Origin: an uncultured Candidatus Saccharimonas sp.
GTDB taxonomy: Bacteria > Patescibacteriota > Saccharimonadia > Saccharimonadales > AQU-01
DNA length: 64,000 bases
Assembly: GCA_943358095.1 (NCBI GenBank)
Contig: CALRGT010000003.1
Coordinates: forward strand, 6,169-70,168
Reading direction: 5' to 3'
The notes below the pieces were generated by a model, which did not search any database, was not told where the DNA came from, and worked only from the letters and a program-made list of their open reading frames with translations. Made by a program: the position numbers and the translations under genes. This document shows positions 49,403-61,385 of this stretch, piece by piece (the stretch's first letter is position 1; every line of letters starts with the position of its first letter).

Positions 49403-49494
49403 AAAATATAAAGAGTGTAGCGAGGGTTCTAGCCCAATGACCTACCGGCAACCTACTAATTAATAGCAAGGTGCTCCATCTAGTCCGTAGTTAT
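49403..49494 (+). promoter_or_regulatory. SAM-I-type riboswitch aptamer upstream of metK
   Basis: The conserved core is readable: AAGAG-tgtagc-GAGGG-ttct-AGCCC-aatGA-cctaCCGGCAACC-...-GGTGCT. The P4 region looks short. Confidence 0.75.
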
Positions 49495-49495
49495 T

Positions 49496-50668
49496 ATGGA
49501 AACGATATTTTGCCAAAACATATCCTTTCCATATATTCACGGGGAAGGATATTTTATTTCAAACTCTACAAAAACAACACTATTTACTAGTGAATCAGTT
49601 GCCGCAGGGCATCCAGACAAAATCTGTGACGCCATAAGTGATGCAATTCTTGACGCAGCCTTAGCGCAAGATCCAAAAACGAGAGCCGGTATTGAGGCGG
49701 TTGCTGGCGCAAATCAGATCAGCCTATTTGGTGAAATTACCACTACCGCCAAACTAGACTATGAGGCGATTGTTCGAGAAGTTATTAAATCTCAAGGTTA
49801 CATTGAGCCAAAGTGGGGCTTTTCTGAAGAGTCAAAGTTCACAAGTTATTTACATCAACAATCGCCAGAGATATCGCAGGGCGTTGACCAAGATGGGGCT
49901 GGCGATCAAGGAATGATGTTTGGTTATGCCTGTAACGAAACCCCAGAACTTATGCCGATGCCGATTACTTTGGCACATGCTTTAGCGCGTAGAATCGACG
50001 AAGTCCGTCAGAAAAAAATACTCGATTATATCCGACCCGACGGCAAGGCGCAGGTTACTGTCGTCTACGAAGATGGCATACCTACTGCTATAGCTAACGC
50101 CGTTATTGCAGTAGCACATTCCGAGCAAGTTAGCGCCGATCAAGTTCGTGCTGGAGTTATTGCTGAGATTATTACCCCAGTTTTAGCTAAATATGGCTTC
50201 ACAGTGAGCGACGAAAATATAACTGTAAATGGCACAGGCTTATGGCATATACCAGGTCCAGAATCAGACGCAGGATTAACTGGTAGAAAAATTGTAGTAG
50301 ATACATATGGTGGTTACGCTCGTGTTGGAGGAGGCGCCTTTAGCGGTAAAGATCCGAGCAAGGTGGACCGTTCTGGCGCTTATGCGGCACGATATATTGC
50401 TAAAAATATTGTTGCTGCCGGTCTAGCGGATAAATGTGAGGTTGGTCTGGCATATGTAATTGGTAAGCCGAATCCTTTAATGCAAACAATTGAAACATTT
50501 GGAACTAGTAAAGTTTCTGACAAAGAACTTTACGACTTCAAAGATAAATTGATAGATACTTCGGTACGAGGAATAGTCGAAAAATTGCAGCTACTTAGGC
50601 CGATTTATTCTGCGACAAGCGCATATGGACATTTTGGTAAGCCAGAATTGCCGTGGGAGCAGGGGTAG
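49496..50668 (+). CDS. metK: S-adenosylmethionine synthetase
   Basis: LFTSESVAAGHPDKICD, GAGDQGMMFGYA and GGGAFSGKDPSKVDRS motifs. The ORF-track ATG 49496 lies inside the riboswitch platform. The conserved N-terminus is better served by ATT at 49556 (see findings). Confidence 0.95.
   Translation: METIFCQNISFPYIHGEGYFISNSTKTTLFTSESVAAGHPDKICDAISDAILDAALAQDPKTRAGIEAVAGANQISLFGEITTTAKLDYEAIVREVIKSQGYIEPKWGFSEESKFTSYLHQQSPEISQGVDQDGAGDQGMMFGYACNETPELMPMPITLAHALARRIDEVRQKKILDYIRPDGKAQVTVVYEDGIPTAIANAVIAVAHSEQVSADQVRAGVIAEIITPVLAKYGFTVSDENITVNGTGLWHIPGPESDAGLTGRKIVVDTYGGYARVGGGAFSGKDPSKVDRSGAYAARYIAKNIVAAGLADKCEVGLAYVIGKPNPLMQTIETFGTSKVSDKELYDFKDKLIDTSVRGIVEKLQLLRPIYSATSAYGHFGKPELPWEQG
49520..49559 (+). 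terminator. riboswitch expression-platform hairpin (terminator/SD sequestrator)
   Basis: 11-bp stem ATATCCTTTCC / GGGAAGGATAT followed by TTTTATTT. The 3' arm contains the GGAAGGA Shine-Dalgarno. Confidence 0.7.
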
Positions 50669-55436: not shown

Positions 55437-56021
55437 ATGATCGAACTTCGACCGAAAAGATTTATGATGGACAAAGACAAAGATGTTGCAGAACGACTAC
55501 GCGACGGCGACAATGACGATTTTTTTGCAAATATCAGACATGGCAACCAAGATATGCCGTGGGGCGGAACTATCGAAAAGGCTGGCGAATTATTTGTTGC
55601 AAAAGGCAATAGTCCTAGACTACCTAGAATCCGAGATGCTTTTAGTGCGGGGGTATCGGTAGCGGTTGAAAGTTTTTTTGAATCTGAAGTTCCTGTATCG
55701 TTAAGGCCAGCAGTACTTGATGTTTTTAGCGAGACTCCATTGCCACGCAAATTACGAAATGGTTCTTCTAGTGCGATATTGGATAATTTTATCGAACTTG
55801 CATATATCGGCTACAATCTTCATCCAGAACTAAATGAAGTCGCCATAAGAACCCGAGATTATTACATTCAAATAGACGAAGAAGCGAAATTGGGTCACCC
55901 CGCATTCTTGGGTATTGGTTTAGGTGCATATTTAATAGATGATGCTTACGAGAGCGCACTTGATAATAAGGTGAACGCTGTGATGAAGGCCGAAAATTGG
56001 CCAATTGACTTGATAGGCTAA
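55437..56021 (+). CDS. hypothetical protein, paralog 1 of a three-gene tandem family
   Basis: Shares VAVESFFESEVPV, GYNLHPE and AYLIDDAYE blocks with the next ORF. Confidence 0.6.
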   Translation: MIELRPKRFMMDKDKDVAERLRDGDNDDFFANIRHGNQDMPWGGTIEKAGELFVAKGNSPRLPRIRDAFSAGVSVAVESFFESEVPVSLRPAVLDVFSETPLPRKLRNGSSSAILDNFIELAYIGYNLHPELNEVAIRTRDYYIQIDEEAKLGHPAFLGIGLGAYLIDDAYESALDNKVNAVMKAENWPIDLIG

Positions 56022-56090
56022 ACGTCGCGACGATCTAAAAACAAAAATAGTGTTGCTTATTAGTTGGTTTGAGCTTAAAAATAGGTATAA

Positions 56091-56708
56091 ATGGAATCAC
56101 ATCTACCAGAAAAATTTAAGTTAGATAGTAACGGCAGAGTGTTGGATTATCTTAGGCATAAAGACCACAATAGCGGCCTAGATATGATGAGACAGCGCTA
56201 CGCAGGGTTGCCATTAATGGCTCCGGCGGTTGCTGCTAGTCGTAATTACGCACCGGTTAATGAAAGAATAAGTTCGGCATTTTTAAGACATGGTTTTGTT
56301 ACTGGAGCTTCTGTAGCGATTGAGTCTTTTTATCAATCCGATGTTCCGGTAGATATAAAAATTTCTCTAGCGGAAGAACTTATAAAAAGTAAGGTAGCTA
56401 ACGATTCCAAAAGTAGGCGGTCTAATGATGTGCTGCGAAATTTTTATGACTTAGCATCAAAAGGAATAAACTTACACCCAGAAGCCGTAGAATTAGTCGA
56501 TTTAACCGAGAGGCACTTTGAGGATCGCGGTCCCGTGGAAGAAATGGGCACTGCCGCTTTCTGTGGAGCCGGTATGACTATTTTGTGGGTCGATGAGGCC
56601 TACGACAGGGTTATTGATGGTCAATTTGATGCAATAAAGCCTGAGATTGATTGGGATTCTAAGTCCTGGGGTCCTGGTTGGAATACTCCATATCCTCCAA
56701 AAGCCTAA
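56091..56708 (+). CDS. hypothetical protein, paralog 2 of a three-gene tandem family
   Basis: VAIESFYQSDVPV, GINLHPE, ILWVDEAYD, C-terminal IDWD. Confidence 0.6.
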   Translation: MESHLPEKFKLDSNGRVLDYLRHKDHNSGLDMMRQRYAGLPLMAPAVAASRNYAPVNERISSAFLRHGFVTGASVAIESFYQSDVPVDIKISLAEELIKSKVANDSKSRRSNDVLRNFYDLASKGINLHPEAVELVDLTERHFEDRGPVEEMGTAAFCGAGMTILWVDEAYDRVIDGQFDAIKPEIDWDSKSWGPGWNTPYPPKA

Positions 56709-56774
56709 AAGCATATCTATATAATATTAAGTTAAAGCTTGCAAATTATCTGTTTTTCGCTTAAGGTATATGAT

Positions 56775-57407
56775 ATGTACGAATATAACGCACCTATATT
56801 GCGGCTAGATAGCACTGAAGAAATAGCAGCACGAATTCAAGAAGATGTTTTATTGGCGACGTGGGATTTCCATAATACCTATATTCCAAGAAGCCAAGGT
56901 AAGCATATTGTTGAAGTTGCAAATTCTCTGTTTATAGACCGACGCTCAGATTTAGACTTATATCGTGGCCAAGCTTTCTGTACGGGGGCTGCGGTAATGT
57001 TGGCGGCATTAGACTCGACAGTTATTGATCCTGAAATACATATCGAAACAATGAATCAGTTTACCTCACAACCTATGCCATACAGAAAAGATACTAGGCA
57101 TCAAAAGAAGATTGATTTAGTCGATAAGATGGCTGGGCTGGGGCACGTTCTTCACCCTGAAATGACGGTAGCAACAGAAGCAGTAGCTCAAGATTTTCTA
57201 AACAAAACTATGGAAATGTCAGTTGAAGATGCTGTGCGAAGCGGTACTGGCTACACTCTTTGGAGAGCTCATCGTTCATGGCAAGAGGCTCGTAGAATTA
57301 TTGCGGCAAAAAATGGCACTACACACGAAAACGAGGAAGCTCAGTTAAGTTCAGAAGTTGCCAGGTTAACCGTAGATCTCGATTGGGATGATTTGTTAAA
57401 AGGCTAA
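56775..57407 (+). CDS. hypothetical protein, divergent paralog 3 of the tandem family
   Basis: In-frame ATG with SD AAGG. GHVLHPE block, GTGYTLWRAH and C-terminal LDWDD align with paralogs 1-2. Confidence 0.55.
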   Translation: MYEYNAPILRLDSTEEIAARIQEDVLLATWDFHNTYIPRSQGKHIVEVANSLFIDRRSDLDLYRGQAFCTGAAVMLAALDSTVIDPEIHIETMNQFTSQPMPYRKDTRHQKKIDLVDKMAGLGHVLHPEMTVATEAVAQDFLNKTMEMSVEDAVRSGTGYTLWRAHRSWQEARRIIAAKNGTTHENEEAQLSSEVARLTVDLDWDDLLKG

Positions 57408-57459
57408 AATGCCCCCTAGTGCGGTTTGTTAAATAGTCGTCGTATTGTATATTTAGGTT

Positions 57460-57882
57460 ATTACAAAACACATTGCCCAAGCCGTCGTATACAGAAGAAA
57501 TCTAAATGGATTAGAGTTTCTTGTTATGAAGCGTGTTCCTAAAGATGGTGGATTTTGGCAGGCAATAACAGGTACCGTTGAGCCCGGTGAAGAAATATTA
57601 GACACGGTTAAACGAGAACTTGTCGAAGAGGCGGGTATTAGCGAACCAATGTATATAAGCGCCAAGCTAGCTGAATACGAATGGTTTAACAGCAAGGGCG
57701 GTTACGGTGGTCGCGACACAATATTTGCAGTAGAGGTCAGCCCGATCGCAGAGGTTGTGATTAGTATAGATGAACATAGCGAGTATAAGTGGCTGCAGAT
57801 AGAAGACGCCTTAGCTCTACTTAAATTTGATGGTAATAAAAAATCAATGCAGCTAGTTTTGGAGCACGCAAATAGTCGTTAA
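57460..57882 (+). CDS. NUDIX hydrolase (NudB-like context), start codon uncertain
   Basis: Nudix box GTVEPGEEILDTVKRELVEEAGI. The ORF-track ATG (57526) leaves only 15 aa before the box. The frame is open back to a TAG at 57454-57456, with ATT at 57460. Confidence 0.75.
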   Translation: MTKHIAQAVVYRRNLNGLEFLVMKRVPKDGGFWQAITGTVEPGEEILDTVKRELVEEAGISEPMYISAKLAEYEWFNSKGGYGGRDTIFAVEVSPIAEVVISIDEHSEYKWLQIEDALALLKFDGNKKSMQLVLEHANSR

Positions 57883-57883
57883 G

Positions 57884-58231
57884 CTAGGATTCTTTATCAA
57901 ATCTTATATAGTCCAGCTCTCTTGGAGTTAGTCCACCCCAGATTCCATCTTGTTGAACTGTGTCGATTGCGTAATTTTTGCAATCTATTCGTACATCACA
58001 TTGGTTGCAAATATATTTGGCGGCTCTTTCTCGGGTAATTCTTTGAGAGTTAGTCTCTACTTTTATTATTAACGGTTTGGAAGTTTGTGGCGTTTCATTT
58101 TCTGGAATGGAAAGTTCTGTGTAGGCGACTTTTGAATAAAATAATTCTGTTTGTCCCTTACAACTGGCGTACTTAACCCAAGACCTACCAGGCCCTTCGC
58201 GGTAATAATCAAGTATCGAGTCCTCTCTCAT
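57884..58231 (-). CDS. WhiB-like (Wbl) iron-sulfur transcription factor
   Basis: Cys pattern C-x(n)-CNQC-x5-C followed by GIWGGLTPRE. Start taken at MRED (a GTG at 58255 is also possible). Confidence 0.75.
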   Translation of the reverse strand: MREDSILDYYREGPGRSWVKYASCKGQTELFYSKVAYTELSIPENETPQTSKPLIIKVETNSQRITRERAAKYICNQCDVRIDCKNYAIDTVQQDGIWGGLTPRELDYIRFDKES

Positions 58232-58279
58232 CCAATAGATGGTATCACTAATCACCAGATTCTAGTATGGATAGATTTG

Positions 58280-58579
58280 CTATCTAATTCTTATTCGACC
58301 TTTGACTGGTGAGGGGAAGCCCCTGCGTAGTCGTTCGAGTTCATTAAGTCCAGCCCAGATGCCGTATTCTTCGTTCTTTGATGACTGTTCTAGGCATTGC
58401 TCTATTACAGGACAGCTGGCGCACATATTCCTTGCGATAGTCTCGCGGCGTTCTCTCGCTTTTGAGCTTTCGTTGTAAGGTGAATAAAACTTATCAGTCA
58501 TACCACGACAAGCTGCCTGGCCTATCCAGCCTTGCACAGCATCAGGATTATTTAGTTTTTCTTCAATTTTCTCTCTCAT
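58280..58579 (-). CDS. WhiB-like (Wbl) iron-sulfur transcription factor
   Basis: AACRG...CASCPVIEQC...GIWAGLNELER. Start at MREK (58579) is supported by a TTGCAC-17-TATAAT promoter 9 nt upstream. Confidence 0.8.
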   Translation of the reverse strand: MREKIEEKLNNPDAVQGWIGQAACRGMTDKFYSPYNESSKARERRETIARNMCASCPVIEQCLEQSSKNEEYGIWAGLNELERLRRGFPSPVKGRIRIR

Positions 58580-58588
58580 CGGATAATA

Positions 58589-58624
58589 ATTATAAAACAA
58601 TAAAGTAATTCGTGCAATATTGCA
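58589..58624 (-). promoter_or_regulatory. near-consensus promoter with overlapping 12-bp palindrome upstream of the WhiB-like pair
   Basis: Minus strand has TTGCAC, a 17-nt spacer, then TATAAT. The perfect palindrome TGCAATATTGCA (58613-58624) overlaps the -35 box. The ATG lies 9 nt after the -10 box. Confidence 0.6.
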
Positions 58625-58687
58625 TGGCACGGCCCATAAACAACAGAGGGCTACTAATTTACAAGTAAACATGGTATAATAGTATTA

Positions 58688-59173
58688 ATGAATGATTTTT
58701 CTAAATTCGAACGTGATTTGGCTTTTGATGCCGATAGTTATGCTGAGTCATACGACATGCAACGGCAGGCTACGCGTGAGCACCTCTCTAGTCTTATGGT
58801 GCAGGGTTATTTAAGTACTAATGTTATTCCTAGCGGATCTTTAGTGGAGGTAGAGCTAGCATCTAGAAGCGTAGCTTATGATCCAGATGAGAAATTGCGG
58901 AGAATAATTGGAACTATGGCTGGTGACGGTAGCTTGAAAGTGATCGGTGATAGTTCTGATGGTAGACAGCTCATAGGGCAGAGAATAGTCATGGGGAACT
59001 GGAAGATAGCAGACGAGGCAAATAACGATATAGTTTATACTCCAGGTACTGTTAATCCTGATGCAAACCTAGGCTATCATAATTATTGGGACGGCGAAGT
59101 TAGCGCGACAGATCTAGGTAGTCCGCCTGCTTCATTTACGGTTGATGGCATCCCTTTTATCTTTGAAAAGTAG
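58688..59173 (+). CDS. hypothetical protein
   Basis: 161-aa ORF divergent from the WhiB-like genes. No family recognised. Confidence 0.5.
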   Translation: MNDFSKFERDLAFDADSYAESYDMQRQATREHLSSLMVQGYLSTNVIPSGSLVEVELASRSVAYDPDEKLRRIIGTMAGDGSLKVIGDSSDGRQLIGQRIVMGNWKIADEANNDIVYTPGTVNPDANLGYHNYWDGEVSATDLGSPPASFTVDGIPFIFEK

Positions 59174-60375: not shown

Positions 60376-60406
60376 ATGCTGCCCGGCATAATGCCTGCTC
60401 TAGTAA

Positions 60407-61195
60407 CTAACGAATGAAGTAAACAACAGAAACAGAATACTGTAGTTTATTTTCGCCTGGCTGCACAACAAGGCTGTTGGTTGCATCTCTAGCCATGCTA
60501 TTGCTTACAGACGAATCTAAAGCAATAGGGTATGGTTGGTACATATTTCCAAACCCAGCGCCATCTGTCACCGACTTTACGTTAGATACTTTAAACCCAA
60601 GATTTTTTGCTGACTGATCGGCTTTGGCACGAGCTTCCTTGGTGGCTTTGTCGCGTGCCTGGCTTTCAAGCTCTTTGCGTTTTGCGTCGCTAAAACTTGC
60701 TTGAGGAGACACCTCTCCTAACGGTGAAGTTGTCGTTATGTAGTCTTGGATTTTTTGAGATAGTTCTGTTTTAGAAACTTTGATGGTGTACATGAGAGTA
60801 TAGGTTGCTTGCTTGGCGCTGTCGTCATAAAAATAATTGTAGTCGTATCCACTAGAGTTTGTTTTTATGTCTTTATCGACGACTCCTAGACCTTTTAGTT
60901 TTTCCGTTATCTCATTACTCTTTTTTGTTAAATTGGCTAGAGCTATAGTTTTGTCGGTATTCTTAAATGTATAACTAGGAGTAAAGACGTATTCGTCGGG
61001 CGTTGCAGTAACTGATGCCTCGCCAGTAACAGAAACGGTGCGGTCATTATTAGATTTTGTCGTCCATGGTTTCCAAATAAATACTATCGCAATAATTATA
61101 ATCAAAAGCACGAGACTGATTATTCGATAGTCGATGATAAGTTTTGTCTTATTTTTTTGTGGTTCTGAATGATTGGAGCTTGCCGGGTCGTTCAT
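60407..61195 (-). CDS. SIMPL (DUF541) domain protein
   Basis: Start at MNDPASS with an AAGGAG SD. TM, then RTVSVTGEASVTATPDEYVF, typical of SIMPL/26-kDa periplasmic antigen family. Confidence 0.7.
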   Translation of the reverse strand: MNDPASSNHSEPQKNKTKLIIDYRIISLVLLIIIIAIVFIWKPWTTKSNNDRTVSVTGEASVTATPDEYVFTPSYTFKNTDKTIALANLTKKSNEITEKLKGLGVVDKDIKTNSSGYDYNYFYDDSAKQATYTLMYTIKVSKTELSQKIQDYITTTSPLGEVSPQASFSDAKRKELESQARDKATKEARAKADQSAKNLGFKVSNVKSVTDGAGFGNMYQPYPIALDSSVSNSMARDATNSLVVQPGENKLQYSVSVVYFIR

Positions 61196-61385
61196 ATAAT
61201 TTAAAATCTCCTTAATTTGATTGCGATAAGCATAAGTATAATATTTATTCAATTATTTTTAAAGCTGATAAGCCTGAATCGCAGTTGAGTTTTTGGCAAA
61301 AACTCCAATCTGTATTGCAATTGAATTTTACTAACCATAGACTATGAGTAACAGTACGTAATAAATAAACAGGAAGTATTAATAT

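Follow-up and report, generated by a model that had tools for sequence, protein, structure and literature searches.

What are the three adjacent genes that lie between positions 55437 and 57407 of a 64,000-nucleotide stretch of an uncultured Candidatus Saccharimonas sp. (assembly GCA_943358095.1, contig CALRGT010000003.1, positions 6,169 to 70,168), and why are three of them kept side by side? An earlier reading of this stretch (hereafter the window), which was made without database searches and is referred to below as the sequence-only reading, had described the three open reading frames (ORFs), here named paralogs A, B and C, as a rapidly diverging local triplication in an accessory island, typical of immunity or host-interaction genes. 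Our results indicate that A, B and C are indeed related, and that they belong to a small protein family whose members, where their origin could be read, come from Saccharibacteria; the three copies are under strong purifying selection and lie in a conserved core neighbourhood. Based on these observations we tentatively suggest that they encode helical modules, probably non-catalytic, with a housekeeping role in this lineage.

A small protein family of Saccharibacteria

Similarity among the three proteins is significant on formal alignment for every pair. BLASTP aligned A with B at E=4e-24 (26% identity across 183 residues), A with C at E=8e-7 and B with C, the weakest pair, at E=7e-4, and all three matched the family hidden Markov model (HMM) over their full length, with scores of 160 bits for A, 169 bits for B and 158 bits for C. 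The proposal of three tandem paralogs of an unrecognised family of about 200 amino acids (aa) is thereby borne out, as is the view that the third copy is the most diverged: C has the weakest pairwise E-values and carries an 18-residue insertion near its C-terminus. The sequence blocks that were said to be common to the three copies were recovered in part. The three-way alignment contains the G-x-x-L-H-P-E motif and G-x-G in A, B and C, but the AF..G..V..ESF.S(D/E)VP block is clear only in A and B and partial in C, a downstream D(D/E)AY is present only in A and B, and the C-terminal DWD is found only in B and C, with NWP at the same place in A. What paralog C keeps is D12, G, HPE, GxG and DWD, while it lacks D(D/E)AY and has only part of ESF..SDVP.

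When 1.84 billion representatives were scanned exhaustively with HMMER, with a query profile built from A, B, C and their orthologs, 62 proteins were recovered at E<=1e-3, 32 of them at E<=1e-10; the 62 are clusters at 50% identity. Nearly all of these relatives are 186-231 aa long, they match over their full length (positions ~5-190) and none carries a fused domain. A word-indexed search of 5.8 billion proteins retrieved nothing beyond near-identical orthologs of the three paralogs; metagenome scans gave no hit with a family alignment and only close relatives with paralog B. Paralog B is matched by a 99%-identical protein in a 'Candidatus Saccharimonas' metagenome-assembled genome (MAG) and by a 95%-identical one in a Saccharibacteria MAG, which marks the window as part of a Saccharibacteria chromosome. 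Taxonomy of the family rests on the subset of the 62 relatives whose origin could be read, and these come from MAGs of Saccharibacteria (TM7) and from metagenomic contigs related to them.

Profile searches against Pfam, NCBIfam, PADLOC and PHROGs gave no match for A and B, and the best curated-library matches of C (DUF7391, E=0.13; RnpM, 0.016; phrog_4336, 0.015) all remained far below the cut-offs. When 50 family members were scanned singly against Pfam, NCBIfam and PADLOC, no family was matched by more than one of them. The best hit of a profile search against PDB sequences had E=0.35, searches of phages (50,697 genomes), plasmids (72,556) and IMG/VR revealed no homolog, and literature searches turned up no description of the family. 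The sequence-only reading had asked whether homology searches would assign the three proteins to a well-known housekeeping family; none was assigned by Pfam, NCBIfam, PHROGs, PADLOC or PDB sequences. The family is, as far as seen, restricted to Saccharibacteria, and it is small, uniform and outside every curated family tested.

The family alignment (A3) comprises 50 sequences, whose mean identity to A is ~20%. Six positions are conserved in at least 90% of them, namely D12, G125, H129, E131, G159 and G161 (paralog A numbering, used throughout), and none of them is missing from A, B or C. P130, within the H129-P130-E131 motif, is near-invariant too. Conserved in the majority of sequences are AF, the S-D block, a P, an L-D and the C-terminal DWD; the Ser of the S-D block is replaced by Ala in several family members. 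The proteins are uniformly acidic (median pI 4.78), paralog A contains no Cys and no Cys is conserved in the family. Comparison of the protein with itself by hhalign disclosed no internal repeat.

Several candidates for hidden members or for known motifs were rejected. Neighbouring orphans on two related contigs (L012, 181 aa and 145 aa; L021, 185 aa) and the window ORF at 58688-59170 are not diverged copies of the family (hhalign probability <=0.2%). A MazG-like ExxE, the Fic motif HPFxxGNGR, a Ser-His-Asp triad, a Pup/UBact-like C-terminus, sigma-factor domains and PhoU were dismissed, as the motifs are not conserved or the folds do not match.

Age, retention and genomic setting

The picture of a local triplication followed by rapid divergence was not supported. 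On sequence grounds a recent local triplication is excluded, because no similarity among A, B and C remains at the DNA level, because the three proteins were monophyletic in 0/100 bootstraps (neighbour-joining, BLOSUM-score distances), and because C is nearer to proteins of other genomes, its closest relatives being P0008 and P0007. A and B cluster with P0009 and P0033, encoded on other contigs, at 59% bootstrap. The family tree as a whole is star-like and highly diverged, with poorly resolved deep branching.

Among orthologs from the window and from contigs L001, L002, L005 and L006 of related genomes, the ratio of nonsynonymous to synonymous substitution rates (dN/dS) was 0.04-0.12 for A, 0.02-0.04 for B, the most constrained copy, and 0.02-0.16 for C, at dS of 0.04-0.68; orthologs of A (P0002-P0005) are 88-99% identical. 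For the neighbouring genes the corresponding values were 0.01-0.02 (BipA), 0.07 (Nudix), 0.11-0.20 (HhH-GPD) and 0.20-0.53 (WhiB genes). A, B and C are as constrained as the Nudix gene and more so than the HhH-GPD and WhiB genes, and all three copies are under strong purifying selection.

These values also bear on the trivial explanation that A, B and C are chance ORFs or decaying pseudogenes. Shine-Dalgarno signals in front of them are weak or absent, and no annotation exists for them anywhere, which speaks for this view. However, no relative whose contig spans the genes has a broken reading frame, purifying selection acts on them, the near-invariant residues are kept and the AlphaFold2 model described below is confident. 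This explanation is effectively excluded: the three ORFs are real genes and have the look of expressed ones.

All three genes are retained in each of the related contigs that span the block (8/8: L001, L002, L003, L005, L006 and L025-L027); on L004, a short contig, B and C are present together with the 3' end of A. The sequence-only reading had suggested checking for copy-number variation among related genomes, and none was seen in these eight. Nor did the description of the region as an accessory island find support. The window is collinear with L005 (96.7%, 13.7 kb), L006 (91.7%, 14 kb) and L001 (92.6%, 12.5 kb); the GC content is 37-45% across the window and 39-41% around the A-C block, and no integrase, transposase or compositional anomaly was detected at the locus. 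Upstream of the block lie MetK, an alpha/beta-hydrolase-like gene, CorA, BipA/TypA and a divergently oriented HhH-GPD glycosylase, and downstream of it the Nudix gene, two WhiB genes and several orphans. The A-C block lies in a conserved core neighbourhood (CorA, BipA, HhH-GPD), and the indel is the Nudix gene itself, which is present in the window, L001, L002, L005, L006 and L025. Window positions 57441-57869 are cleanly missing from L026 and L027, both of which keep A, B and C and are otherwise collinear at 90-93% identity. The Nudix gene is therefore not an obligate partner of the three paralogs.

More distant relatives were examined as well, which brought the survey to 13 distinct genomic contexts, and HMM scans of the loci confirmed the copy numbers. 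Most of these loci have a single copy of the family. MAG GCA_964490245.1 has two dispersed copies, one of which (P0007) is located downstream of rpoBC, whereas the other (P0013) adjoins a MazG-like gene, one gene downstream of a UvrD/PDDEXK helicase. An independent tandem pair was found in L019/L020, its members being each other's closest relatives at 87% bootstrap. It is placed upstream of MetK and near a BipA whose C-terminus is 85% identical to that of the window, so the BipA/MetK neighbourhood seems to be an ancestral location common to the window, L012 and L019. Beside this pair, in divergent orientation, stands a gene of the Pup-ligase family (PF03136, E=2.2e-30; L019 5763-7253, - strand; L020 3217-4701). 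The gene order in L015 and L018 is PIF1 helicase, family member, DUF1801 and GH1 glycosidase, with an NYN gene accompanying PIF1, and DUF1801 occurs in L013 too; in L017 and L024 it is QueA, a UvrD/AddB-type helicase and then the family member, with a MazG-like gene in L017. No operon partner is constant across the contexts. The family duplicates repeatedly, both in tandem and in dispersed form, and the copies are kept.

Defence-type genes were noticed a few genes away from single copies in three contigs: an N6/N4 methyltransferase, SduA_C (Shedu) and a ResIII/restriction endonuclease in L007 (7700-12591), DUF4357, an MmeI-type enzyme and a DEAD helicase in L024 (12330-16606), and KwaB in L018 (1122-2156).

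In line with the sequence-only reading, the block might be an immunity, antitoxin, effector-neutralising or host-interaction array, which would have been diversified by local duplication in an arms race. A, B and C do resemble small all-alpha immunity and antitoxin families in being small, acidic, helical, lineage-restricted and tandemly duplicated, traits that are common among immunity proteins. Tandem duplication moreover recurs in another lineage (L019/L020), and the defence genes of L007 (methyltransferase, SduA_C, restriction enzyme), L024 (MmeI) and L018 (KwaB) are only a few genes distant. However, the survey of homolog neighbourhoods for toxins and secretion genes, which the sequence-only reading had proposed, found no recognisable toxin, nuclease-toxin, LXG/Rhs/WXG, toxin-antitoxin or secretion gene adjacent in any of the 13 contexts. 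At the scale examined, the dN/dS of 0.02-0.16 does not point to diversifying selection, copy number is fixed in the eight block-spanning relatives, the core position beside BipA/CorA is common to the distant relatives L012 and L019, no PADLOC or Pfam immunity family was matched, and phage and plasmid homologs are absent from the collections searched. We regard such an array as very improbable, and infer, albeit with low certainty, that the block is not a toxin-immunity, antitoxin or mobile-element module.

Predicted structure and possible function

The sequence-only reading had recommended structure prediction and structural comparison for each paralog; paralog A was modelled and the model compared with known structures. 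AlphaFold2, supplied with the 50-sequence alignment, gave a mean predicted local distance difference test (pLDDT) score of 93.8 and a predicted template modelling (pTM) score of 0.89, and all five models had pLDDT of at least 92.8. The model consists of eight helices (residues 16-22, 26-38, 43-53, 62-81, 90-99, 111-128, 130-146 and 153-185). G125 and H129-P130-E131 sit between helices 6 and 7, while G159 and G161 are placed inside helix 8. Foldseek found nothing at E<=1e-3 in PDB (350,542 chains) or BFVD, the two collections to which the statement on structural analogs applies. The best PDB match was TenA (2qcx_A), with E=0.82, a template modelling score (TM) of 0.30 and a root-mean-square deviation (rmsd) of 13.7 A; an earlier, shallower model gave the same picture (3mvu, E=0.68, TM 0.24). 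The protein is predicted with confidence to be a soluble, single-domain eight-helix bundle, for which PDB and BFVD contain no significant analog.

Heme-oxygenase-like proteins (TenA/THI-4 thiaminase II, CT610/CADD and heme oxygenase) recurred among the top Foldseek matches of both models, in alignments of near full length, and like the present family they are single-domain all-alpha proteins of ~200-225 aa with 7-8 helices. These matches are, however, non-significant (E 0.68-3.8, probability <=0.25, TM 0.15-0.30, rmsd 10-15 A), and none attained E<1e-3 or TM>0.5, the values taken to indicate a TenA/heme-oxygenase-like fold. There is no sequence similarity between the two groups either. Characteristic features of the heme-oxygenase-like proteins are the active-site Cys of TenA, the proximal His in the first helix of heme oxygenase and a di-iron set of His and carboxylate residues. 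In contrast, the orphan family conserves neither the Cys nor the Tyr of the TenA site and has neither a proximal-His arrangement nor a 3-His/3-carboxylate di-iron set, and its only invariant His is located at the helix 6/7 junction. The modelled resemblance may be taken as a lead only.

This lead, together with the invariant residues, forms the basis of the main rival explanation, namely that the family represents a new all-alpha hydrolase or metal-dependent enzyme with an Asp12/His129/Glu131 active site, whose paralogs would differ in substrate and which might act in nucleotide or DNA sanitation. D12, H129 and E131 are kept in at least 90% of a family sharing otherwise only ~20% identity, and the earlier AlphaFold2 model pairs residue 11 with residue 83, which brings the N-terminal L-D beside the S-(D/E) block. 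Genes of nucleotide metabolism or DNA repair are found nearby, i.e. HhH-GPD and Nudix in the window, a MazG-like gene and a UvrD/PDDEXK helicase (L017), the same helicase (L024) and PIF1 with NYN (L015/L018), and the top Foldseek matches, though non-significant, are recurrently heme-oxygenase-like enzymes (TenA, THI-4, CT610 and heme oxygenase). On the other hand, only three polar residues are invariant, and there is neither a second His/carboxylate set for a di-metal site nor a conserved Cys. H-P-E coincides precisely with the N-terminus of a helix and could act there as a capping box, and the fold matches do not reach significance (E>=0.68, TM<=0.31). The neighbour associations, which amount to ~3 independent synteny classes, lack statistical force; the Nudix gene is missing from two relatives that have all three paralogs, and no partner is constant. 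An enzyme of this kind is possible, although we consider it doubtful.

The explanation we favour, tentatively and with somewhat less than even confidence, is that A, B and C are lineage-specific, cytoplasmic and probably non-catalytic helical modules, which would serve in binding, as adaptors or in regulation, with a housekeeping role and with sub-functionalised paralogs. Each copy might bind a different partner, or the copies might assemble with each other. Since the paralogs would be sub-functionalised, their joint retention and probable co-transcription would be explained. A non-catalytic function is preferred because most of the invariant positions are occupied by Gly or Pro, or are found at helix boundaries or inside helix 8; likewise, the Ser of the S-D block is not a nucleophile, because it is replaced by Ala in several members. 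Three considerations weigh against this interpretation: D12, H129 and E131 are invariant polar residues of the kind that classically act as catalytic groups or metal ligands, an invariant His would be unusual for a mere helix cap, and the step to a non-catalytic adaptor argues from absence.

A bolder version, which appears unlikely, holds that the fold is new and specific to Saccharibacteria. Its members would then either form hetero-oligomers, A-B-C here and pairs elsewhere, or constitute a new class of all-alpha Asp/His/Glu enzymes, in both cases serving the reduced-genome epibiotic lifestyle. Salvage and repair of nucleotides or DNA could be one such function, and regulation tied to the neighbouring WhiB or Pup-ligase-type genes another. 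The novelty of the family is narrow: neither its sequence nor its predicted fold could be placed with the libraries searched.

Orphan lineage-specific families make up a large share of the proteomes of the Candidate Phyla Radiation (CPR), and lineage-specific CPR proteins are thought to underlie the unusual episymbiotic biology of these bacteria. The family described here resembles them in being confined to one CPR lineage, conserved within it, and devoid of annotation and domain matches; it differs in its confident model without a PDB analog, its motif set (L-D, G-x3-H-P-E, G-x-G and DWD) and its recurrent duplication. As such orphan families are common in CPR genomes and no new mechanism is demonstrated, the practical surprise is modest. 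The family nevertheless constitutes a tractable target: the proteins are small, they have a clear motif set and a confident model, and strong constraint is combined with repeated duplication and retention.

Gene layout and neighbouring features

The three ORFs were found where the sequence-only reading had placed them, co-directional on the + strand (Table 1). Paralog C can be extended to a longer ORF with an alternative TTG start at 56739, but the ATG at 56775 was adopted, because the family alignment supports it. Terminator-like or promoter-like sites in the spacers are not above chance (the scan did no better than on shuffled sequence), and the terminator-free spacers make it likely that A, B and C are co-transcribed.

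Table 1. Coordinates of the A-C block and of neighbouring features in the window
Feature	Position	Strand	Description	Basis
SAM (S-box) riboswitch	49403-49511	+	directly upstream of metK	57.9 bits (gathering 44.4)
metK	49496-50668		longest ORF	
Paralog A	55437-56021	+	194 aa, pI 4.8	ORF call
A-B spacer	56022-56090	+	69 nt, without terminator-like hairpin	sequence
Paralog B	56091-56708	+	205 aa, pI 5.4	ORF call
B-C spacer	56709-56774	+	66 nt, without terminator-like hairpin	sequence
Paralog C	56775-57407	+	210 aa, pI 5.1	ORF call
Nudix gene	57526-57882			
WhiB-family gene	57884-58255	-		Pfam E=3e-14
WhiB-family gene	58280-58672	-		Pfam E=2.5e-15
ORF with SIMPL-domain ortholog	60407-61252	-	ortholog in L001 has SIMPL domain (PF04402)	

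The absence of a signal peptide and of a transmembrane helix from A, B and C was confirmed, the maximal Kyte-Doolittle hydropathy over 19 residues being 0.96-1.43. That each gene has a ribosome-binding site of its own, as had been stated, found little support: no Shine-Dalgarno-like motif precedes A, and B and C are preceded only by AGG(T). The lack of such a motif is uninformative, because these motifs are rare before genes across the window; AGGA, GGAG, GAGG, AAGG or AGGT occurs within 20 nt upstream in only 5/18 long + strand genes. Judging from these upstream sequences, translation initiation in this genome seems to proceed largely without Shine-Dalgarno pairing.

Some further features of the region deserve mention. 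Both WhiB-family genes downstream of the block are kept in all relatives, and with the dN/dS given above they evolve faster than their neighbours. A second small indel is located nearby, where window positions 60380-61248 are absent from L027 while the flanks are ~93% identical; it covers nearly all of the ORF with the SIMPL-domain ortholog.

The S-adenosylmethionine (SAM) riboswitch upstream of the block shares 16 nt with the beginning of the longest metK ORF, whose product has the usual N-terminal TSESV..GHPDK motif only from about residue 31 onwards. Given this overlap, translation of metK probably starts further downstream. The MetK of the window is just 37-41% identical to the MetK proteins of L012 (2154-3302) and L019 (9245-10222), whereas the latter two are 71% identical to each other and BipA of the window and L019 are 85% identical. 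This comparison of sequences suggests that two MetK lineages exist, or that a gene replacement took place, among these Saccharibacteria.

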